Origin: Escherichia phage RB32
Length of the DNA stretch: 64,000 nucleotides
Sequence record: NC_008515.1
Strand: one strand, 5' to 3'
Shown: positions 39,920 through 52,943 of the stretch, in pieces
How the letters are laid out: each line of letters starts with the position of its first letter
Numbering within the stretch: position 1 is the stretch's first letter
Translations under genes and position numbers: made by a program
Notes under the pieces: model-generated
Seen by the model: the letters and a program-made list of their open reading frames with translations, nothing else
Databases searched by the model: none
Told to the model about the DNA's origin: nothing

Positions 39920-40390
39920 TTAATCATGTTTCCACACCCCATCGGTATTTGACCAAAGCCGCTGATTATCTGATCCTCGCCACAGCTTTTTGGTCGGAAG
40001 ATTTTTCTCATACTTCCCATCAATAATAACATCAACATATTTAAGCATTTCTAGTTGTTTAATATCTTCAAACTTATATCCTGTCCACAACCAAATGCTT
40101 TTATTGGGATAAAGATTTTTTACTGTTTGAACAATGCAATGAATAACATCTCGGTTATCAGGATAGAGAGGGTCACCTCCAGTTATAGTCAATCCTTCTA
40201 TATAATCATTATTCAAACATTCAATTAATTGCTCTAGTGTTTCACCAGTGAATGGAATACCATTTCTAGCATTCCATGTTGATTTATTATAACACCCTTC
40301 ACATTTATGCAAACAACCTGTAACGAAAAGAACGGTCCTGCAGCCAGGACCATTAATAAAATCGCAAGGATAAAATCTATCATAATTCAT
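39920..40390 (-). CDS. nrdG: anaerobic ribonucleotide reductase activating enzyme (radical SAM)
   Basis: 156-aa ORF with CLHKCEGC (CxxxCxxC). Confidence 0.9.
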   Translation of the reverse strand: MNYDRFYPCDFINGPGCRTVLFVTGCLHKCEGCYNKSTWNARNGIPFTGETLEQLIECLNNDYIEGLTITGGDPLYPDNRDVIHCIVQTVKNLYPNKSIWLWTGYKFEDIKQLEMLKYVDVIIDGKYEKNLPTKKLWRGSDNQRLWSNTDGVWKHD

Positions 40391-42204
40391 TGGTGTTTAA
40401 CCCTATGCATGATTTCTTTATTTTTGCCGAGATTAAATCCGCGTTCGTTCGGATTTCCCAAATAACCACACGTTCTTCTTATTGTGTTCATCTTTTTAGG
40501 ATCAGTTTCTCCACAAATAGAACAAACAAATCCGTTTTCAGTAGGAGTCATTTCATGGGTACTTCCGCATGTAAAACACTTATCTACTGGCATATTAACA
40601 CCAAAATAATCTAAATGTTGTGCAGCATAATCCCATACAGCCTCAAGACCTTTTAGGTTATTTTTCATATCAGGAAGTTCAACATAAGAAATGTGACCAC
40701 CTGTCGCAATGAAATGATATGGCGCTTCACGAGAAATCTTTTCAAACGGAGTAACATTTTCTTCTACTGAAACGTGGAAACTGTTAGTGTACCAGCCTTT
40801 ATCGGTAACATCTTTTACGCTTCCATATTTTTCTGTATCAAGTTTACAGAAGCGATAACAAAGGTTTTCAGCAGGAGTCGAATACAAACTAAAAGCAAAC
40901 CCAGTTCTTTCAGTCCACTGTTTAAGATGAGCATTCATTTTAGTTAAAATTTCTCGTCCAATATCACGACCGACAAGAATATTCAATTCGTGAATACCAA
41001 TGTATCCTAGGGACACTGAACTTCTACCGTTTTTAAATAACTCAATTATGTCGTCATCAGGTTTAAGACGAACCCCGAATGCACCTTCTTGGTAAAGAAT
41101 AGGAGCAACAGTAGCTTTAACTCCTTTTAAGGAACTAATTCTACACATCAAAGCTTCAAAACACAAATCCATACGTTCATTGAATAATTCAACAAATTTC
41201 TGTTCGTTAAATTGTGTTCCAATATAAGAATCTAATGCAATGCGAGGAAGATTCAGTGTTACAACACCAAGATTATTACGTCCATCAAGAATTTCATTAC
41301 CAGTCGAATCTTTCCATACGCTCAAGAAACTACGGCAACCCATTGGAGAAACAGGAATAGATGAACCGGTGATAGCTTTATTATTCTTAACTGAAATAAT
41401 ATCAGGATACATCCTTTTGCTTGCACACTCTAGAGCAAGCTGCTTAATATCATAGTTCGGATCGTCTTTATAAAGATTAACGCCTTCTTCAACGAACATA
41501 ACAAGTTTAGGAAAAATAGGAGTTATCCCATCACGACCAAGACCTTTAATACGATTTTTCAAAATTGCTTTCTGAATCATTCGTTCAGTCCAGTCAGTTC
41601 CCGTACCAAATGTAATTGTTACAAAAGGAGTCTGTCCGTTTGAACTAAAGAGAGTATTTACTTCATATTCATAAGCTTGGAATGCATCGTATACGTCTTT
41701 TTCTGTTTTAGATTGGGCATAATTCAGTGCATCGGCGATTTGCCATTTTTCTGCGTCCTCGATATGTTTTGCATAGGTGCGTTTAACATAAGGAGAAAGT
41801 ACTTTATCTACATTCGCAAAAGTCGTTCCGCCGTATTGGTGAGAAGCAACCTGTGCGGTAATTTGTGCCATAATTGCAGTAGCAACGCCAATTGATTTAG
41901 GAGTTTCAATCTGCGCATTACCAAGCTTAAATCCGTTCTCAAGCATTCCTTTTAAATCTACTAAACAACAATTAGTAAATGGAAGAGCAGGGGAATAATC
42001 AATATCATGAAAATGAATAATTCCGCTTTCATGCGCTTTCATAATAAAAGACGGGACCTTATTTTTGGCAATGTGTTTAGACACAATACCAGCCATAAGG
42101 TCCCGTTGAGTTGGAAAAACACGAGAATCTTTATTAGCATTCTCGTTTAAAAGGTCTTTATTAGTTTTATGAATCAATCCTTCAATTTCTTTTTCAATTG
42201 TCAT
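40387..42204 (-). CDS. nrdD: anaerobic ribonucleoside-triphosphate reductase (intronless)
   Basis: 605-aa continuous ORF; C-terminal zinc site CFTCGS...CSICG and glycyl-radical motif RRTCGYLG. Confidence 0.9.
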   Translation of the reverse strand: MTIEKEIEGLIHKTNKDLLNENANKDSRVFPTQRDLMAGIVSKHIAKNKVPSFIMKAHESGIIHFHDIDYSPALPFTNCCLVDLKGMLENGFKLGNAQIETPKSIGVATAIMAQITAQVASHQYGGTTFANVDKVLSPYVKRTYAKHIEDAEKWQIADALNYAQSKTEKDVYDAFQAYEYEVNTLFSSNGQTPFVTITFGTGTDWTERMIQKAILKNRIKGLGRDGITPIFPKLVMFVEEGVNLYKDDPNYDIKQLALECASKRMYPDIISVKNNKAITGSSIPVSPMGCRSFLSVWKDSTGNEILDGRNNLGVVTLNLPRIALDSYIGTQFNEQKFVELFNERMDLCFEALMCRISSLKGVKATVAPILYQEGAFGVRLKPDDDIIELFKNGRSSVSLGYIGIHELNILVGRDIGREILTKMNAHLKQWTERTGFAFSLYSTPAENLCYRFCKLDTEKYGSVKDVTDKGWYTNSFHVSVEENVTPFEKISREAPYHFIATGGHISYVELPDMKNNLKGLEAVWDYAAQHLDYFGVNMPVDKCFTCGSTHEMTPTENGFVCSICGETDPKKMNTIRRTCGYLGNPNERGFNLGKNKEIMHRVKHQ

Positions 42205-44187: not shown

Positions 44188-44430
44188 TTATTCCTTAATT
44201 CCTAGTACTTGTTTAAAAGTCTCGTCGTAATCAAGACTTTGGCCCGTTTGTTCTTTATATTTGTATATAATATCACTTACTTCTGATAGCATATTTTTAT
44301 ATGAACGAGTTAAAGCAGATTTAAGCACGCTGTATCTATCAGGAAATTTACCATGTTCATTATAATAAGCTATTGTTAATTCACGGACTGCCTTTTCAGC
44401 AGTCTCCATATATTCTTTACGCTTGGTCAT
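44188..44430 (-). CDS. hypothetical protein (nrdC.1 position)
   Basis: ORF track 44188..44571; probable start at internal Met [13 protein letters not shown]. Confidence 0.45.
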
Positions 44431-44731
44431 TTTCTTCTCGGTCAAATCGGTGTTTACAATGACGACATTTATAACGAAGATTACTAGTCTGCCAATGGAC
44501 CAATTGCACCTGTTCAGTTCCACATTCAGGGCAATTAGGAACGTTTTTAGAAGCCCTTTCGCGACGTTCAACCATGACCATTACAGAATCCCAATTAACA
44601 GGAGGGCTATAATCATCACAACCATGAATCTTTCCACGCATTTCCAGATCGTCTTCTTCACCAGCCATAATAATTTTAATTAGACTAGAATTACTTGAAG
44701 CTGCAATGTCTTCTAATAGACGCTTTTTCAT
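44417..44731 (-). CDS. zinc-ribbon protein
   Basis: 104-aa ORF with CPECG...CRHCKH. Confidence 0.5.
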
Positions 44732-45654
44732 TTCAATACCTCAATAGCATTGCGTAAACCATTTGCTTTGGCGGTTAAAGCCTTAAGAACTTTAGTATGC
44801 TCTTCAATTTGTTTTTCAACTTCAATCAAACGAGCATTGAGATATTCGCGTTCTTCTTTCATAGTATCATTCCCATGATTGGATTTTGGTGTAGGTTTAA
44901 ATTCACTAGGGTCCTTTAATTTAATAACAAATTTAGTTTCAAACAGCGAAAGACCATAATTCGTATTATCATCAAAGGATTTGACTACATCCATATCAGA
45001 TAATAACACGCGTAAATTATAAGCCAAAGAACTAATAGTTTCATTGTGTTTATTAGCTTCGCGTGGTTTCATATACGGAAGATTTTTATATATCTCGTGC
45101 GGAGCACAAATGATAATTGACAATTCAAATTGCCCATTCTGGGACGATGGAGTGAATTTAGCCGTAACCCAGTCTTTTACATTCACATTAATAGTACGGT
45201 TATCACCATGACAAAACAGTCTACGAGAATGCTTAAAAAGCATATTCACGTTATTATTGAATTCGTGTGAAAATTCACTAGCAAATTTTTCTTTACTATC
45301 TTTAGAAAACCATTCTTCTAAATAAGTTCTTTTCACGTCGTTAATAATATTAAATGTAACAACACTAGCATTTGATACATTAGTCTCAATGTAGCTTGGA
45401 TACATAAATTTTTTAACATTATTAACAGCTATCACAGAAGATAGTAATCGGGAACGTTTGAACCACTCGAGCAAAGAACCAAGAGAATGTGAATACGCAT
45501 TTTGTGTATCTTTACAAATATGGTTTTCCCATCCAATATAGTCTAAAAAATCACGAAGAATATTATTGATTACTGCTCTGTGCCCGATCTGATAATTACG
45601 GTGTTTAGTAATAAGACTGTCAAAATAATCAATATAATGTTTACGAGTTTTCAT
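44728..45654 (-). CDS. uncharacterised protein with C-terminal coiled coil (tandem family member 1)
   Basis: 308-aa ORF, starts MKTRKHY, ends ...[31 protein letters not shown]. Confidence 0.6.
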   Translation of the reverse strand: MKTRKHYIDYFDSLITKHRNYQIGHRAVINNILRDFLDYIGWENHICKDTQNAYSHSLGSLLEWFKRSRLLSSVIAVNNVKKFMYPSYIETNVSNASVVTFNIINDVKRTYLEEWFSKDSKEKFASEFSHEFNNNVNMLFKHSRRLFCHGDNRTINVNVKDWVTAKFTPSSQNGQFELSIIICAPHEIYKNLPYMKPREANKHNETISSLAYNLRVLLSDMDVVKSFDDNTNYGLSLFETKFVIKLKDPSEFKPTPKSNHGNDTMKEEREYLNARLIEVEKQIEEHTKVLKALTAKANGLRNAIEVLK

Positions 45655-45706
45655 ATTCTTCTCACTTGGTTAATGGTTTATACTCCGAGCCATCCTTGGC
45701 TTTAAA

Positions 45707-46708
45707 TTACTTAATTAACTGTAAAGCTTGTTCAAGACGATCAAGACGATTAACGGATTCTTCCCAAATCTTTTTAGCCTGCTCATATTCTTTCTGCGCT
45801 TTATTAGAAATTTCTAGAACTTCTTTATAAGCTTTTTCTAGTGCAATAACTTCTGGACGAATTTCTATCGGTTCAGGTGAATCATCAAGACATTCCATTA
45901 GTTCCTCAAGGGTAGTTTCTTCTTTAGGAGTATTCACAATTTCATCACATTTTTGTTGGTAAATTTCTTTATCAGTAGGTGAATAAGCACATTTCACTTC
46001 ACGAAGGCTAATTATAATTTTATATCCTTCCCAACCACACATATTTTTGAAAGGATATGTATGAATACTTTTTACAGTTTCCATACAGCCCAAAACCGCC
46101 TCTAATTGATAAGTTATAGTGCTAGCAATTGAGAAAAATTTATTAATGCTCTTTTGGTTAGCTTCTGGTGTAAAAAATCCATAATTCACAAAAATAGATA
46201 CTTTATTTTTATCAAGTTCATATTCTTTTATGATAATCATATCAGAAGCCAAAGGATGAATTTGACGATAATCGCCATAACATAATTTAGAAGCTGATTT
46301 TAGAATTTGTCCTTTGAAAAGTCTGAAATTACTAATCCAACGACGAGTAAAAATATTCTCAGGGTCTTCTTTATTATTGAGATGATAAGAATTAACATCA
46401 CCGAACCAATTATATCCTACTACATCTTTAGTTCGTTTAATTTCTTTCCCAAAATTACCAAGAATATCCCGATTAACCAAATATGAAAGAAGACGAGACT
46501 CTTTAAAGGTTTTCTTGATAACATCTTTATCTACACGGCTAGAAATTTTACGAACTTCATGAATAAATTTGCCGGAAGAAACAATACCTGCATCAACACT
46601 ATTGAGCCATTGATTGATAATAGAAAGAACGCTATTTTGGCCAAACATCGGTATAGCTTTATCATCAATAACGCTATTGAATGATTTGATATATTCGTTA
46701 CGAGTCAT
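45707..46708 (-). CDS. uncharacterised protein with C-terminal coiled coil (tandem family member 2)
   Basis: ORF track 45707..46759 runs through the early promoter; start at MTRNEYIKSF (GAGGAG RBS) gives 333 aa. Confidence 0.6.
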   Translation of the reverse strand: MTRNEYIKSFNSVIDDKAIPMFGQNSVLSIINQWLNSVDAGIVSSGKFIHEVRKISSRVDKDVIKKTFKESRLLSYLVNRDILGNFGKEIKRTKDVVGYNWFGDVNSYHLNNKEDPENIFTRRWISNFRLFKGQILKSASKLCYGDYRQIHPLASDMIIIKEYELDKNKVSIFVNYGFFTPEANQKSINKFFSIASTITYQLEAVLGCMETVKSIHTYPFKNMCGWEGYKIIISLREVKCAYSPTDKEIYQQKCDEIVNTPKEETTLEELMECLDDSPEPIEIRPEVIALEKAYKEVLEISNKAQKEYEQAKKIWEESVNRLDRLEQALQLIK

Positions 46709-46736
46709 ATTAATCTCCTCAGTAGAAAGTAAGAAC

Positions 46737-46766
46737 ATTATACCACATCCTTGTGGCAAAGTAAAC
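46737..46766 (-). promoter_or_regulatory. early promoter (-35 GTTTAC, 18-bp spacer, -10 TATAAT)
   Basis: minus strand GTTTACtttgccacaaggatgtggTATAAT, near-identical to the promoter at 2418..2447. Confidence 0.5.
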
Positions 46767-47788
46767 TAGTTCAGTGCATTTAGTGCATTGTTCAGTTTAG
46801 AACGTTGCTTTGTCAGATTTTGAACCCTTGACTGAGCTTGTTCTAACGCCTTTTCAGCTTCTAGCACTTCATTGGTAGCTTTAACGAGTTCATCATCTAC
46901 TGCCTTAAGAGACTTCTCAATCGCGTCAGCGTGCCATTTTTCTACAGGTTTAAAATTTGAATTTTCAGTAGGAAGAAAACTCACTTTATTAAGTTTACAT
47001 GCATCTATATTGCTTGAGCTATACATCCAAAATTTAGGATCGTTTGATAAGTAATTGGATAAATTTAAGTTATCTTGCACTTCCTGCTTTTTCTCTTGCG
47101 GGACTTCGTCCTTTCTCAAAAAATCGTATTTAAATGAAACGATCATATCAAGTTCATATGTTGTTGTATGTTCCCAATTTCGCTCAAAACGAGGTAAAAT
47201 CTTAGATTGAACAGCAGCAACAACATCCATATACTTAAATGCTTCTGTCAGCTGTGATTTAAGACATTCACAAATTGAAAGAGAATTTTTAGTATTAGGC
47301 TTAAAGCTAATTCGTGCAGTTCTATTATTTTCTTTTAACGGTCTTACTTCCATCTGAAGAGTATAACCATCAAATTTCAGATTCTTTAAGTTAATATCAG
47401 AGCCTTTTAATCGACTAGCAGTAGACAAAATTTGCTTTAATTGTCTACGGAACAGAGCAATAAATCTCCATTCAATACGATAATGATTTGGATTGAAAAA
47501 TCCAGATGATAAATCGACCTTACTTTGACCAACGCCTTGAACAATCAAAGGATTTTTATAATCAATAGTTTTACAGAAATCGGTGAGCTGTTCACGAGCA
47601 GTCATTTGTGTAATATACCCTGCTTTACTAAAATTACGCACCCATTCACTGCTATTCGTATACTTAAAGTGATGAATAACACGATTAACTTTATCAGGGT
47701 CTAAATTATTTTGGCACAAAAATGTCATAACATCACGAGTATAACTGGCATTACGAACCATATCTTCAATTTGAGAACGAGTTTTCAT
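46766..47788 (-). CDS. uncharacterised protein with C-terminal coiled coil (tandem family member 3)
   Basis: 340-aa ORF, starts MKTRSQI, ends ...AEKALEQAQSRVQNLTKQRSKLNNALNALN. Confidence 0.6.
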   Translation of the reverse strand: MKTRSQIEDMVRNASYTRDVMTFLCQNNLDPDKVNRVIHHFKYTNSSEWVRNFSKAGYITQMTAREQLTDFCKTIDYKNPLIVQGVGQSKVDLSSGFFNPNHYRIEWRFIALFRRQLKQILSTASRLKGSDINLKNLKFDGYTLQMEVRPLKENNRTARISFKPNTKNSLSICECLKSQLTEAFKYMDVVAAVQSKILPRFERNWEHTTTYELDMIVSFKYDFLRKDEVPQEKKQEVQDNLNLSNYLSNDPKFWMYSSSNIDACKLNKVSFLPTENSNFKPVEKWHADAIEKSLKAVDDELVKATNEVLEAEKALEQAQSRVQNLTKQRSKLNNALNALN

Positions 47789-47796
47789 AGTGTTCC

Positions 47797-48708
47797 TTAA
47801 GATTTAAGTAAATCAACAATTTTAATTAACTTTTCACGCTCAGATTTAGCTTTACTACTCAGTCCAGATAGTCTGAAAATTTCATCATCATATTGTTGAA
47901 TAGAAATATTCAGCTCTTCAATTTGCTTATTAAAATAATCAATTTGCTCAGAATGTTTTTCGTTACTACGAACTGGTACAGGGTTTGTAGGCAATTTAGT
48001 TAAACTGGATTCATCCGGGCGATAAATTAAAATGCAATTTGAACCAATCGGGCATTTAGCACCAGATGAATATTCTAATGTTCCAGATTCTTTTAAAACT
48101 TCAAAAGCTAAACAGAGATGATGCCCCATATTGACATAATCTGTAGAGTGAGCTCTGATATAATAATCATCGCCGCGAATACTAAATTTAAAGCATTTAA
48201 GGTCTTCTGTATTATTGGTCTTAAAAATCATTTGTTTATCTAGACCTTTAGCTAATCGAGCGCCTAATGCTAATAATCGTCGTTGATTTTCCCACAAATC
48301 TGCGATCATTTGACCAAATGATAATTTCGGCATTAGTCGACCATAAAGGTCATATCCTTTATTATAATTGCGAAGGATTTCACTCGCATTAATACGAGAC
48401 AATGCTCCAATTTTATTAAGGGCTTTCATGATGCGATTAGATAAACTCATTCCAGACCCGTTTGTTCGCTGTAAATGTTTTTCTAATCCAAATCCAATAT
48501 CAACTTTAAATTTATCTAAAATTTCAGCATGAACATCTCTGTCAATAACATTCAAATCCAAAGTTGGGTTAAATCTATGAAAAAATTTATCTGGCTCTCC
48601 ACGACGAAATACAGTCCATTCATTCATCATTTTTTTATTAACTAAAGATTTAATTACTGCATTGACATTATTAATTACGACTGACATATTTTCCTCACTC
48701 AATTTCAA
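47797..48708 (-). CDS. uncharacterised protein with C-terminal coiled coil (tandem family member 4)
   Basis: 303-aa ORF ending ...QIEELNISIQQYDDEIFRLSGLSSKAKSEREKLIKIVDLLKS. Confidence 0.6.
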   Translation of the reverse strand: MKLSEENMSVVINNVNAVIKSLVNKKMMNEWTVFRRGEPDKFFHRFNPTLDLNVIDRDVHAEILDKFKVDIGFGLEKHLQRTNGSGMSLSNRIMKALNKIGALSRINASEILRNYNKGYDLYGRLMPKLSFGQMIADLWENQRRLLALGARLAKGLDKQMIFKTNNTEDLKCFKFSIRGDDYYIRAHSTDYVNMGHHLCLAFEVLKESGTLEYSSGAKCPIGSNCILIYRPDESSLTKLPTNPVPVRSNEKHSEQIDYFNKQIEELNISIQQYDDEIFRLSGLSSKAKSEREKLIKIVDLLKS

Positions 48709-49102
48709 TTTTACTAAATATACAGAATAAGATGGAACAGACTATATAAGCACCACACACAGATTGAACTAATACCATTCCAAAGAACCAAACAATATTA
48801 TCAAACAATGTCTGTTTTACGTCGAAAGGACGTAAACTTACAGTAATATTATCACCTTTTTCTATTGAAGAATACATCTCTGGGGAAATATATTCACTAA
48901 ATCTATAACCGTCTTTGAGTTCATATACAGCAATAAACGATAAACTAGACCCCTTTCCTTGAGTTCCTGTAAGGGTATTAACTACAGTAACATCATAATC
49001 TTTATAATGCATATAATCATTAATTGCGTAATAACCATATGCAATTACTATACATAAACAACATATCAATAAATTCAATCTTTTAATTATCAACTGTTTC
49101 AT
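48695..49102 (-). CDS. membrane protein (N- and C-terminal TM segments)
   Basis: 135-aa ORF, hydrophobic stretches LLICCLCIVIAYGYYAI and VWFFGMVLVQSVCGAYIVCSILFCIF. Confidence 0.55.
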   Translation of the reverse strand: MKQLIIKRLNLLICCLCIVIAYGYYAINDYMHYKDYDVTVVNTLTGTQGKGSSLSFIAVYELKDGYRFSEYISPEMYSSIEKGDNITVSLRPFDVKQTLFDNIVWFFGMVLVQSVCGAYIVCSILFCIFSKIEIE

Positions 49103-49157: not shown

Positions 49158-49685
49158 TTATGCGAGTACCGTCTTTAACCGTTCTTCAAACTTCCGAAGA
49201 GTATTCTGGCGTTCAGCTCTTTGCTTTTTGTAAGTTTCAATACGCTCTGAAATGAGAGTGTATCGTTCATTTACTGATTCTTTCATAAAATCAGGAATTT
49301 CACGAGAAGCTTTAATCTCATCAAATTTATCAATAACAACTTGCTCTTCAGCAATTAAGTTATCATACATTAAAATATCTTTCTTGATGAACTCAATATC
49401 TTCTTGAGTTACACGAGATAATTTAGATGCTTTATCCTTTTTGTACTGTTCATTAGTATCACGAGACCAGTGTAATGTACGATTTTTATTCGTATTCTTG
49501 TAAATTTCTACAATACCAATCTCATCGATAATAACGATCCAATTCCAACGGGATTTGTAAATTTGTCCTCCATCAACCGTGATTTCACCTCCAATTGAGA
49601 TGTCATTAAAGAACTTGCTTTGTGCTTCAGATTTAAATTTACCATCGTTGTAATTTACCAGGTTGAAAATATCTTTAGCGTTCAT
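49158..49685 (-). CDS. hypothetical protein
   Basis: 175-aa ORF, first gene after early promoter 49714..49743. Confidence 0.55.
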   Translation of the reverse strand: MNAKDIFNLVNYNDGKFKSEAQSKFFNDISIGGEITVDGGQIYKSRWNWIVIIDEIGIVEIYKNTNKNRTLHWSRDTNEQYKKDKASKLSRVTQEDIEFIKKDILMYDNLIAEEQVVIDKFDEIKASREIPDFMKESVNERYTLISERIETYKKQRAERQNTLRKFEERLKTVLA

Positions 49686-49713: not shown

Positions 49714-49743
49714 ATAGTACCACAGAGGAACAGTCTTGTAAAC
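49714..49743 (-). promoter_or_regulatory. early promoter (-35 TTTACA, -10 TACTAT) with conserved leader
   Basis: minus strand GTTTACAagactgttcctctgtggTACTATacaactatcaact. Confidence 0.45.
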
Positions 49744-50130: not shown

Positions 50131-50850
50131 TTAGGATTCTTCTAAATGTCTTTTCTGAAAAGTTGATACCATACTACGATACGGTTCATTTGGATATCCG
50201 TGTTTTATAGCTTCCTTTGTAAATTTTCTCCATCCATATTTAGTTTCTTTCCAAAGCTCGAATAATTCATCTTCATACTGCCATATAGTTAAATGAGAAC
50301 GCTTTGCAGCTTTAATTCCATTAATATGCTTTTCTTTTACTGCAGGATTGTTTAGTTTCTTTTTAATAATATTACTAACTTTTCTAACAAAAACTGGGTC
50401 CTTATATCGTTGCGAAGTTTTTATTGAAGTGTTTAATTTAGCTTCCGGCGTGGATGTGACCTCTTTCATCTTTTTCTTCATATGCTGTATATGATTAGGA
50501 TTTTTCCATAAATTTATAGAATGCTTTTTGCATTTTATCCTAGTTTCATCTGCAACCTTTCCTCCTTCACCCCCGTATGACAGGTTAACACAGTTTTTTC
50601 CATATTTCAATTTACCTGCCATGATATATAATATTTCAGCTTGTACCATTTTATCATAATTATCAAAAACTTCTAAAACCGTTTTTGATAATATGTGGTC
50701 ATTTGACACTTTTACACGTTCTATATAATTTCCACTACCAACATACGAATCATTGATGTTATTAGTTATATGTCGACCATAATAGTATTTCTTAATACCT
50801 GTCTTTAAATTTAATATTTCAGTTTTATAGATAGTAAAATATTTTTTCAT
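50131..50850 (-). CDS. GIY-YIG family homing endonuclease (Seg-like)
   Basis: 239-aa ORF; N-terminal FTIYKTEILNLKTGIKKYYYGRH...YVGSG resembles the GIY-(x10-15)-YIG module; basic C-terminal half. Confidence 0.55.
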   Translation of the reverse strand: MKKYFTIYKTEILNLKTGIKKYYYGRHITNNINDSYVGSGNYIERVKVSNDHILSKTVLEVFDNYDKMVQAEILYIMAGKLKYGKNCVNLSYGGEGGKVADETRIKCKKHSINLWKNPNHIQHMKKKMKEVTSTPEAKLNTSIKTSQRYKDPVFVRKVSNIIKKKLNNPAVKEKHINGIKAAKRSHLTIWQYEDELFELWKETKYGWRKFTKEAIKHGYPNEPYRSMVSTFQKRHLEES

Positions 50851-51827
50851 TTTAATAATACCGTTTCAGCGATTTCTTCCCAACCGTTTTTGTCGGTCAT
50901 AATAAAGTCAGCAAGATAAAGAGCAGTACGCAGTGAAACATTGCGTAAACGATTAACATTGACTTTCATCCATGATAATGCTTTATAAGTTTCTTCATCA
51001 GAAAGACCGCGCTTTTGCATCATGTCGGTTGAAAGAATAACATCTTCAACCCTGACCATAATTTCTTCATTAGTGTGAACACCCAAATCCAAATAAACCG
51101 AGCGGGACACTAATGCTTGTAAATGTGGAGCAAGTTTAGTACCACGGTCTAATTCGCGGTCAATGTCAACGTTTGTGATAAAAACAATCGTTCCTTTAAA
51201 TTCAAACTCACGCTCAATGCCTTTTTCTTCTAAGTAAGAAGATGCAGTGCTCCAGCAGACTTTACGGGTCTCTCCAGTGTCCAGAGCAGCTTTCAGAAGA
51301 TTAAGAATGTCCATATCAGAGAAAACATCCACATCATCAATCAAAAGGACAGAATTCTCTTCACGATTATTCCAAAGCTGCTCATAAAGACCAATACCAG
51401 AGATTTTACCATTAATGCTTTTATATTCAATGTATCCAATATCATTTGCTTTATTTAAAGCTTTATCTAAAGAATATGTTTTACCTATACCTGCCGCACC
51501 AGAGATAATTAATGAACGAATGTTTCCGTTAATAATACCATTCGTCATCATTCCCATAACATTAAATCTTTTATTAATGCGGGTTTTCATATCTTCATAT
51601 GATTCTTTAACTTCTTCAACTTTTACACCATCATATGAAATGTCTGATTTGTAAACCCAAACACCGCGACGCTTACCGTCAATTTCAACAAAAACTTTAC
51701 CATCTCCTTGTGCATCTACCGGAGCATTATCTGGGAACCATTCACCTAAGAGCTCAAAAGTTCCAGAGATTTCTTTACCAAAGTAGATACCCTTATTGAT
51801 AGTTACAGTTTTCATTTTATTCTCCAA
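50847..51827 (-). CDS. P-loop ATPase (AAA-like)
   Basis: 326-aa ORF; Walker A GAAGIGKT, Walker B LLIDDVD; ATGA overlap with the GIY-YIG gene. Confidence 0.65.
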   Translation of the reverse strand: MENKMKTVTINKGIYFGKEISGTFELLGEWFPDNAPVDAQGDGKVFVEIDGKRRGVWVYKSDISYDGVKVEEVKESYEDMKTRINKRFNVMGMMTNGIINGNIRSLIISGAAGIGKTYSLDKALNKANDIGYIEYKSINGKISGIGLYEQLWNNREENSVLLIDDVDVFSDMDILNLLKAALDTGETRKVCWSTASSYLEEKGIEREFEFKGTIVFITNVDIDRELDRGTKLAPHLQALVSRSVYLDLGVHTNEEIMVRVEDVILSTDMMQKRGLSDEETYKALSWMKVNVNRLRNVSLRTALYLADFIMTDKNGWEEIAETVLLK

Positions 51828-51879: not shown

Positions 51880-51909
51880 CGTTTTGTGAAAAATTTTTGA
51901 AATAAAAAA

Positions 51910-51927
51910 GGGAGCCCGAAGGCTCCC
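51910..51927 (-). terminator. intrinsic terminator (GGGAGCC-UUCG-GGCUCCC followed by U-run)
   Basis: gggagcccgaaggctccc after the stop of the 337-aa gene; T-run follows on transcript. Confidence 0.5.
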
Positions 51928-51929
51928 TA

Positions 51930-52943
51930 TCATTTATAATAACTTCGGTGGTTTTCAAGATAGACCTTCTCAAGGAAGTCATCCCAGAAACCCATGTCTA
52001 CTTTTTGCTGCATACCGTTCTTAGAAGCTTCAGTAGATGCTGCTTCTACTTGATCGACCACATCTTCCAAAAACTCTTGAACTGTTTTAAATGGATGTTT
52101 ACCCAACTTCACGTCGAGAATAAATGGAGCATCTTGGAGTGGATAAACCAAGTCACCAGTTTTGTAAATTTCCAATAGTTGAAGTCCACCACGACAAGCA
52201 TGACTCAGAGCTTTCCAGTCAATGCCTTCATTGGCTTCGGCCTTACGAGCGCGTTCACCATATTCAGCATCTAATTTGTTCAGTGACTGCTTAAGCTCAA
52301 TAAGAGAAAGAGTTGTCTGATATTTACGACCCAACACAGTGTAGAACGTTTGTGGGCCTGTTTTCTCATGATTATGGAACACCCATTCACAGAATTCGTT
52401 TTCTGGAAGACGATGCTTAATATCTTCAACTTTAGTACGACGCTGCTTAATGGAACCGTCTTCTTGGTAATCAACCCATTGCTCAGGGATTTGATTAACT
52501 ACTTTCAATACATCGCGTAATGCAGCCAAACGAGAACCCTTGACGCCATATTTAGAAGCTTGCTTACGGACATATCCTAAATAGGATTTCATGTTAGTCG
52601 TATAAAAACGAGAACGGTTGTCTTGAATAAACTTCCACACATCAGGCAAATCAGATTTAACCACTAATTCAGGTGGAGTGTGAAGCATATCCAATGCTAC
52701 AGTTTCACCATCTGCTGCTAATTTAAAGAAATATTTAAGACTATATAGTTCATGGTCAATATCATCTTTAGTGTTTTTAGATGATGTGTTGTTGGTATTT
52801 TTACTCATATGCTCTTTAACATTTCCGATAAGAATATCGCGAGCAGGAGGAACAAAAATTTCTTTAAAATCTACATCAGATTCTGGGGTAGAAGTTCCAT
52901 AAAGATGACTACCAAAATAGCTTTTCATTACTGTTTTCATCAT
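51930..52943 (-). CDS. nucleotidyltransferase-fold protein (minimal NTase signature GS-x3-G-x5-SDVD)
   Basis: 337-aa ORF; N-terminus MMKTVMKSYFGSHLYGTSTPESDVDF fits the Pol-beta-superfamily NTase motif. Confidence 0.55.
   Translation of the reverse strand: MMKTVMKSYFGSHLYGTSTPESDVDFKEIFVPPARDILIGNVKEHMSKNTNNTSSKNTKDDIDHELYSLKYFFKLAADGETVALDMLHTPPELVVKSDLPDVWKFIQDNRSRFYTTNMKSYLGYVRKQASKYGVKGSRLAALRDVLKVVNQIPEQWVDYQEDGSIKQRRTKVEDIKHRLPENEFCEWVFHNHEKTGPQTFYTVLGRKYQTTLSLIELKQSLNKLDAEYGERARKAEANEGIDWKALSHACRGGLQLLEIYKTGDLVYPLQDAPFILDVKLGKHPFKTVQEFLEDVVDQVEAASTEASKNGMQQKVDMGFWDDFLEKVYLENHRSYYK

Follow-up and report, generated by a model that had tools for sequence, protein, structure and literature searches.

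In phage T4 a role in countering host defence has been described for nrdC.5, one gene of the block that runs from nrdC to mobD. Srikant et al. (eLife 2022) reported that a T4 clone carrying deletions was unable to infect ECOR17 and regained infectivity once dsr1 was deleted from the host; when carried on a plasmid, dsr1 protected MG1655 from the T4 deletion clone, and T4 nrdC.5 expressed in trans restored plating (PMC9391042). Dsr1 combines a SIR2 NADase with a TPR sensor, and according to a 2026 preprint this sensor is triggered by the phage major capsid protein (PMC12803255). Here we analyze a stretch of 64,000 nucleotides (nt) from Escherichia phage RB32 (NC_008515.1; hereafter the window), in which the product of 46766-47788 is the orthologue of T4 NrdC.5 (94% identity), likewise encoded between nrdC.6 and nrdC.4. 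The activity was shown for the T4 protein against ECOR17 Dsr1 only, and the other three window genes, nrdC.3, nrdC.4 and nrdC.6, appear from sequence comparison to be diverged paralogues. Our data support the view that the four genes are tandem paralogues of one family restricted to T4-like phages (Straboviridae).

Two further described systems are of particular relevance. DSAD1, a protein of phage SPbeta, likewise counters a SIR2-NADase defence protein, and it may serve as a working analogy for how the present family acts. It reportedly binds the sensor region of its target, DSR2. DSAD1 is described as repressing DSR2, and the tail tube protein as activating it (PMC10973363, PMC10981675, PMC11263360). 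The SPbeta system differs in that the phage is unrelated and the target is DSR2 rather than Dsr1, and the likeness is one of description. Closer to home, the dmd-tifA-adfA 'anti-TA island' (toxin-antitoxin; PMC9391042) of T4 also consists of early non-essential genes, each able to neutralize a host defence, that differ from one T4-like phage to another. Those genes are mutually unrelated, whereas the nrdC.3-nrdC.6 cluster would be one family expanded in tandem.

The genes themselves and the role of nrdC.5 were thus already known; what we add is the link among all four, their single-copy relatives in other phages and their expansion in the T-even lineage, none of which is reported in the literature that we searched. 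Domain databases reflect these relationships in part, with Pfam filing the family separately as DUF7235, PF26897 and PF26899. In the same literature four papers name any of nrdC.3-nrdC.6, none of them describing the paralogy, and there was no paper on the role of nrdC.3, nrdC.4 or nrdC.6 and no follow-up on the mechanism of NrdC.5. T4 is the reference phage, yet most genes of its nrdC-to-mobD block have no known role.

Counterparts of the T4 genes in RB32

A first-pass annotation of the window, made from the sequence alone, had singled out four consecutive same-strand genes of 308, 333, 340 and 303 amino acids (aa), and left undecided whether T4 has equivalents among its nrdC.x genes. Equivalents do exist: the window block aligns with T4 nrdC.2-nrdC.9 at 96% DNA identity, and the T4 feature table lists nrdC.3 (927 nt), nrdC.4 (1002 nt), nrdC.5 (1023 nt) and nrdC.6, with nrdC.2 at one end of the group and nrdC.7, nrdC.8 and nrdC.9 at the opposite end. 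Gene order from nrdC.2 through nrdC.3, nrdC.4, nrdC.5 and nrdC.6 to nrdC.7 is kept relative to T4. By sequence, the minus-strand genes at 44728-45654 (308 aa, 92% identical to T4 nrdC.3), 45707-46708 (333 aa, 95% identical to nrdC.4), 46766-47788 (340 aa, nrdC.5) and 47797-48687 (97% identical to nrdC.6) are identified as the orthologues, at the positions where the annotation had placed them, the length of 303 aa for the last being obtained if a TTG start is used. Two of the proteins begin with MKTR (nrdC.3, MKTRKHY; nrdC.5, MKTRSQI) and one with MTRN (nrdC.4, MTRNEY), again as first noted, and in a DNA comparison a 5.4-kb stretch spanning all four genes was a 100% match to phage RB33 (KM607001). 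The description of the region as 'hyperplastic', on the other hand, did not hold up: the genes occur in roughly 550-740 sequenced phages in a fixed order, and the region is not especially hyperplastic.

Deposited T4-like genomes often call nrdC.1-nrdC.11 'thioredoxin', and in other genomes the labels are 'tail sheath stabilizer', 'Mur ligase domain' or 'replication protein'. A Pfam search gave no thioredoxin family match for any of the four proteins and no domain matching the other three labels; 'thioredoxin' seems to have been carried over from the gene names.

Kinship of nrdC.3, nrdC.4 and nrdC.5

The first-pass annotation had proposed a common origin of the four genes from their size, architecture and tandem arrangement, and the strongest case for this is made by nrdC.3 and nrdC.4. 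The two proteins match one another directly by BLASTP (E 1.6e-5 over 199 colinear residues), their hidden Markov models (HMMs) cross-match each other's orthologues at 6.5e-9 and 2.9e-6, and hhalign gives 98%. Their alignment runs over the full length and contains the invariant motifs FKxSRLL and GDxR, and PHROGs places the two proteins together in phrog_1435, the only two of the four that it merges. On this sequence evidence they are plain paralogues.

For nrdC.5 the link is made by profile-profile comparison. With deep alignments, to which we added the 22-28%-identical orthologues from Gaprivervirus, Dhakavirus and Mosigvirus, nrdC.5 matches nrdC.3/4 at 92-95% by hhalign (E 3e-8 to 5e-7) over approximately 240 colinear columns. 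A non-colinear match between nrdC.3 and nrdC.5 had been obtained with shallow alignments, and was superseded by the colinear one after deepening. NrdC.5 is a full-length member of Pfam DUF7235 (PF23882; 408.7 bits, E 2.3e-122), whose gathering cut-off of 30 bits is missed by nrdC.3 (11.9 bits, E 0.15, tail only), while nrdC.4 and nrdC.6 gave no match to this entry. The precomputed Pfam entries PF26897, found on nrdC.3 homologues, and PF26899 correspond to the nrdC.3 and nrdC.6 types, respectively. The sequence comparisons therefore place nrdC.3, nrdC.4 and nrdC.6 outside the DUF7235 entry, to which they would be related at the superfamily level. The 175-aa nrdC.8 protein, which also possesses a heptad tail, was considered as a truncated family member and ruled out (hhalign at most 0.6%).

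A bridging family connects nrdC.6

For nrdC.6 the connection runs through an intermediate. We gathered 68 further T4-like loci by means of the conserved neighbor nrdC.11 and clustered the 519 open reading frames (ORFs) from all 95 loci; a scan of viral contigs with the nrdC.3/4 alignment yielded no more than 14 loci, most of them from phages that the set already included. The clustering yielded a family of 8 members of approximately 326 aa, derived from loci of Klebsiella/Enterobacter-type T4-like phages whose nrdC.11 is 64-70% identical. In a first comparison this bridge family matched nrdC.5 at 98.0%, and nrdC.3/4 and nrdC.6 at 96.3% each, every match covering about 220-230 colinear columns. 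An exhaustive HMMER search with the nrdC.6 profile over 1.84 billion representative proteins found 14 proteins, of which the three most distant (P0203, P0205 and P0206; whole-library E 8e-7 to 4e-5) are all bridge-family members, P0205 matching both nrdC.5 and nrdC.6 at 96%. When the bridge alignment was rebuilt to contain the bridge family and these three library proteins (alignment A6), it matched nrdC.6 at 98.3% (E 2e-14) over 209 columns that include both conserved core blocks described below, nrdC.3/4 at 96.6%, and nrdC.5 at 96.8% over 262 columns. P0205 and one bridge member moreover exceed the DUF7235 cut-off, which bridge proteins do by way of their C-terminal part. After removal of 70-aa tails the bridge still matched nrdC.6 at 92.7% and nrdC.3/4 at 91.2%. 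Unrelated neighbors (nrdC.10, nrdC.11 and other clusters) reached at most 0.8% and reversed alignments at most 4.1%.

Shared architecture and predicted structure

In agreement with the first-pass description, all four proteins comprise a body of about 250 aa and a charged C-terminal tail with significant heptad periodicity, the two being separated by a disordered linker, and the tail sequences quoted at the time are present. Each tail fits a single unbroken register of at least 4 heptads in which the a and d positions are hydrophobic in 11/13, 12/14, 15/16 and 12/16 cases (nrdC.3, nrdC.4, nrdC.5 and nrdC.6, respectively), and the heptad scores were matched by 12, 8, 0 and 3 of 5000 shuffles in the same order (p <0.0002 to 0.0024). 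AlphaFold2 models are helical here as well: nrdC.5 has a long C-terminal helix (residues 281-339) with a predicted local distance difference test (pLDDT) score of 76-91 over the last 40 residues, and nrdC.6 a C-terminal helical hairpin (243-272 and 278-295), with a low-confidence linker preceding the tail in both models.

A joint alignment contains two conserved blocks, KxSxhSxxxAxxxLxxFG (roughly h-K-x-S-x-h-S-x-x-x-A-x-x-x-L-x-x-F-G; block 1) and FxxxhxxN...hLxxGARLxxGxxRxh (block 2), together with a QLxxAL helix, a PVE motif just upstream of the tail, and a common C-terminal ending ...QRxKLxxAhxxLK. In nrdC.3 block 1 occupies aa 64-83 (45406-45465), block 2 aa 124-157 (45184-45285) and the heptad tail aa 265-308 (44731-44862). 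The corresponding positions in nrdC.4 are aa 67-87 (46448-46510), 120-153 (46250-46351) and 284-333 (45710-45859), and in nrdC.5 they are aa 52-72 (47573-47635), 105-137 (47378-47476) and 285-340 (46769-46936). In nrdC.6, numbered from the 303-aa version, blocks 1 and 2 lie at aa 96-116 (48361-48423) and 131-162 (48223-48318) and the tail hairpin at aa 249-303 (47800-47964).

The nrdC.6 model (pLDDT 77, predicted TM-score 0.65) and the nrdC.5 model (pLDDT 52.5, too poor for superposition) present their secondary-structure elements in the same order: N-terminal helices, a long helix with block 2, 2-3 strands, a helix, two strands, the disordered linker and the C-terminal helix or helices. As modeled, the common build would thus consist of a variable N-terminal helical part, blocks 1 and 2, a small beta-beta(-beta)-alpha-beta-beta unit, the linker and a heptad tail of 45-55 residues. 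The nrdC.5 model was built with homologues that are all at least 78% identical, and was left out of the fold search. A BFVD search with the nrdC.6 model returned its own family first, followed by uncharacterized T4-like phage proteins of approximately 300-335 aa (E 2e-7 to 5e-4) from phages of Pectobacterium, Enterobacter, Acinetobacter, Klebsiella, Citrobacter and Yersinia. Neither a solved structure nor a known fold was matched, a sequence search of the PDB gave no solved relative, and searches of Pfam and PHROGs found no informative family beyond DUFs.

Copy number, distribution and evolution

Tequatrovirus genomes carry nrdC.6, nrdC.5, nrdC.4 and nrdC.3; Gaprivervirus and Dhakavirus possess nrdC.6, an nrdC.5-like gene and nrdC.4, and Mosigvirus nrdC.6, an nrdC.5-like gene and nrdC.3. 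The Klebsiella/Enterobacter-type T4-like loci contain one family member in the same place. This pattern, of 3-4 tandem copies in the E. coli T-even genera versus one syntenic copy elsewhere, suggests that the family expanded in tandem along the T-even lineage. As nrdC.3 is found without nrdC.4 in Mosigvirus, and nrdC.4 without nrdC.3 in Dhakavirus and Gaprivervirus, Tequatrovirus may have acquired the pair through recombination. The expansion pattern is tempered by the census itself, whose cut-off of 1e-10 allows divergent extra copies to escape, and by Yersinia Tegunavirus (phiR1-RT and fHe-Yen9-01), with one member in the census and a possible second, divergent one. Between nrdC.11 and nrdC.10 these two phages have genes of 313-328 aa (phiR1-RT g098, L027:11224-12210; fHe-Yen9-01 gp111, L096:16382-17323) that are matched in BFVD by the nrdC.6 model (E 2.7e-4) and weakly by the nrdC.5 HMM, and that look like a further, displaced family member missed by the strict census. 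The 313-aa BFVD match from fHe-Yen9-01 was initially taken for an nrdC.3 orthologue, and is instead gp111, the divergent member upstream of nrdC.10. In Acinetobacter phage Acj61 the equivalent place is taken by three genes of 268-330 aa, one of which equals in length the 304-aa Acj61 protein matched in BFVD by the nrdC.6 model.

Relative to the window genes, ratios of non-synonymous to synonymous substitution (dN/dS) ranged over 0.13-0.30 for nrdC.3, 0.18-0.30 for nrdC.4, 0.12-0.26 for nrdC.5 and 0.10-0.19 for nrdC.6, as compared with 0.00-0.16 for the neighbors nrdD, gene 49, nrdC, nrdC.8, nrdC.10 and nrdC.11. Constraint on the four genes is relaxed: they evolve approximately 3-6 times faster than their neighbors and are still under purifying selection. 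In one phage nrdC.3 is only 61% identical between flanking genes that are 93-99% identical, which is an allele replacement.

Broken, split and fused copies recur. The nrdC.5-like gene of SP18 lies in two ORFs (L004:5956-6860), nrdC.4 is in two pieces in phage G8 (H132, L030) and in T2 (H167), and Kelasse and phiC600P9 have nrdC.5 in two pieces (H62, H63). Family members thus appear to have been inactivated repeatedly in natural isolates, which fits accessory genes that are conditionally useful. A natural chimera is found in P0034 (299 aa, on a 167-kb contig), whose residues 1-129 correspond to nrdC.5 146-272 at 90% identity and are fused to the C-terminal half of an nrdC.3-type protein (57% identity, residues 134-308). 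Such an arrangement implies that a deletion removed nrdC.4 and joined the two paralogues at a short common 'NKV' stretch. In the nrdC.6 copy of Shigella phage Sf25 (P0091, 378 aa) an internal segment of about 82 residues (IRAHSTDY...QIEEL) is duplicated in tandem.

A proposed role in counter-defence

The first-pass annotation had proposed a host-takeover or anti-defence role for the four genes. For nrdC.5 this is borne out by the T4 protein, which restores infection of a Dsr1 host and is 94% identical to the window protein. Because they are kin to nrdC.5, whose T4 form overcomes Dsr1, nrdC.3, nrdC.4 and nrdC.6 are good counter-defence candidates, and our hypothesis is that they have a counter-defence or host-interaction role directed at other targets. 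This kinship turns them into three concrete and cheaply testable candidates.

Taken together, we consider it probable, if by no means assured, that the four genes form a T-even family of tandem paralogues whose products act early as coiled-coil oligomers blocking defence proteins, with NrdC.5 acting on Dsr1. According to this proposal a single ancestral copy became 3-4 copies in the ancestor of the E. coli T-even genera. The proteins would be made early, ahead of the late capsid protein that triggers Dsr1, and would oligomerize through the C-terminal coiled coil, and the body of about 250 aa would bind and block a defence protein stoichiometrically, such that NrdC.5 would occupy Dsr1 before capsid protein appears. 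The paralogues may since have diverged to cover different targets. More tentatively, one may think of the cluster as a 'specificity array', in which one inhibitor scaffold (a target-binding body and a coiled-coil tail) was duplicated in the T-even lineage and each copy is directed against a different host immune sensor. Just as speculatively, those targets might be other TPR sensors of the Dsr1/Avs7 family that detect the major capsid protein, the single-copy form being the ancestral generalist. The kinship of the four genes also suggests that T-even phages may have come by a wider host range through duplication and divergence of an inhibitor scaffold and not through the acquisition of unrelated genes, and the conserved blocks and the tail offer handles on how Dsr1 is blocked.

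Several results weigh against the interpretation set out above, and as regards kinship most of them concern nrdC.6. Its direct profile comparisons with nrdC.3, nrdC.4 and nrdC.5 gave no signal (0.9-2.5%), so that a profile test of common origin is positive among nrdC.3, nrdC.4 and nrdC.5 (92-98%) and for nrdC.6 by way of the bridge family only, which matches all the groups at 96.6-98.3%; the membership of nrdC.6, as judged from sequence, is transitive. The structural part of the case is similarly divided: the nrdC.6 and nrdC.5 models share their element order, but the BFVD search with nrdC.6 returned no nrdC.3 or nrdC.4 models and a single nrdC.5-like protein at E 0.16 only, and with an nrdC.5 model this weak the fold comparison rests on secondary-structure order. 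One might therefore suppose that nrdC.6 is not a homologue and came to resemble the others in size, position and coiled-coil tail by convergence. We consider this improbable given that the bridge alignment matches nrdC.6 across both blocks and nrdC.3/4 and nrdC.5 at about 97%, that the nrdC.6 link persists without tails, that P0205 is a significant match of the nrdC.6 profile in the whole-library search and also passes DUF7235, and that the order of elements is the same. The links of nrdC.5 are themselves sensitive to how they are made, falling to 32% against nrdC.3/4 when the nrdC.5 alignment is limited to Tequatrovirus, and to 43% against the bridge once the 70-aa tails are removed. Since charged heptad tails occur in all members and several weak matches are tail-only (e.g. 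nrdC.3 versus DUF7235), the family could in principle be spurious, its profile scores being inflated by coiled-coil or low-complexity composition. This we regard as very improbable and as largely refuted by the controls: the bridge links to nrdC.6 and nrdC.3/4 keep 91-93% without tails, reversed sequences and neighbors stay at background even where, as in nrdC.8, a heptad tail is present, and the aligned regions hold specific motifs outside the tail.

As regards function, the support for anti-Dsr1 activity is a single complementation experiment on T4 NrdC.5; for nrdC.3, nrdC.4 and nrdC.6 the case is their paralogy, and direct binding, oligomerization and diversification of targets are all steps that we infer. 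Gene-wide positive selection was not found in any of the four genes (dN/dS 0.10-0.30), and the 95-98% conservation of nrdC.6 within Tequatrovirus fits a constant partner at least as well as an arms race. An alternative is that the family has a general host-takeover or regulatory role, acting for instance on the nucleic-acid or transcription machinery of host or phage or on the handling of capsid protein, with the rescue by nrdC.5 being indirect and the paralogues not being defence-specific inhibitors. The retention of one syntenic copy across many T4-like genera with different hosts, the purifying selection throughout and the high conservation and strongly invariant motifs of nrdC.6 would all agree with this. 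We nevertheless find it rather doubtful: the Pfam search of the four proteins showed no DNA-binding, enzymatic or other domain and no solved fold matches, T4 can do without the genes on laboratory hosts and evolved clones have lost them (PMC9391042), copies are recurrently broken in natural phages, and nrdC.5 is strongly divergent between genera (22-28% identity among orthologues). A counter-defence family remains our preferred reading, with its common origin supported for nrdC.3 and nrdC.4 by BLASTP, for nrdC.5 by profile-profile comparison and for nrdC.6 through the bridge.

Gene starts, promoter-like sites and neighboring genes

The start first given for nrdC.6, a TTG at 48708 (303 aa), is probably 7 codons too far upstream. 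GAGG lies 7 nt upstream of the ATG at 48687, most gene callers give the resulting 296-aa product, and we consider this ATG the most likely start; the T4 annotation gives nrdC.6 as 275 aa. The nrdC.4 ATG at 46708 has GAGGA 6 nt upstream. The neighbors are as first described, with a 135-aa protein with hydrophobic ends at 48695-49102 and a 175-aa protein (nrdC.8) at 49158-49685.

It had also been claimed that each block of genes is headed by an early promoter. Two minus-strand sites, both identified by consensus match only, agree with this in their placement. A sigma-70-type promoter-like site at 46737-46765 (TTTACT, 17-nt spacer, TG, TATAAT), 29 nt upstream of the nrdC.4 start codon, has a position that fits an early promoter heading nrdC.4 and nrdC.3, and a site at 49714-49742 (TTTACA, 17-nt spacer, TG, TACTAT), upstream of nrdC.8, would head a block of nrdC.8, nrdC.7, nrdC.6 and nrdC.5. 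Across the region as a whole, promoter-like sites were not enriched (44 found versus 42.3 expected in shuffles), and it is therefore placement alone that supports the two.

Several observations were made on the surrounding genes. Between nrdC.9 and nrdC.10 the window has an extra minus-strand ORF (50131-50850, 239 aa) that has a 4-nt overlap with the nrdC.10 stop. No gene occupies that site in T4; the counterpart in T6 carries the annotation 'DNA endonuclease', and a Klebsiella phage gene of similar size 'homing endonuclease'. The ORF itself has no Pfam match, and is probably a mobile endonuclease insertion. The window nrdD (40387-42204) is one uninterrupted ORF of 605 aa and is therefore without the I-TevII-encoding intron around which T4 nrdD is joined from two pieces. 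The 104-aa nrdC.2 (44417-44731), with weak sub-threshold zinc-ribbon matches, varies more among close relatives than any other gene of the block, and its 62-97% identity together with a dS near saturation in some pairs suggests allele replacement. Finally, nrdC.10 (50847-51827) gave sub-threshold AAA and STAND-NTPase-like Pfam matches only, and nrdC.11 (51930-52943), present in 1516 phage records across T4-like genera, encodes a RlaP-type nucleotidyltransferase (Pfam E 2.5e-11) and is followed by a strong terminator-like hairpin at 51909-51928.

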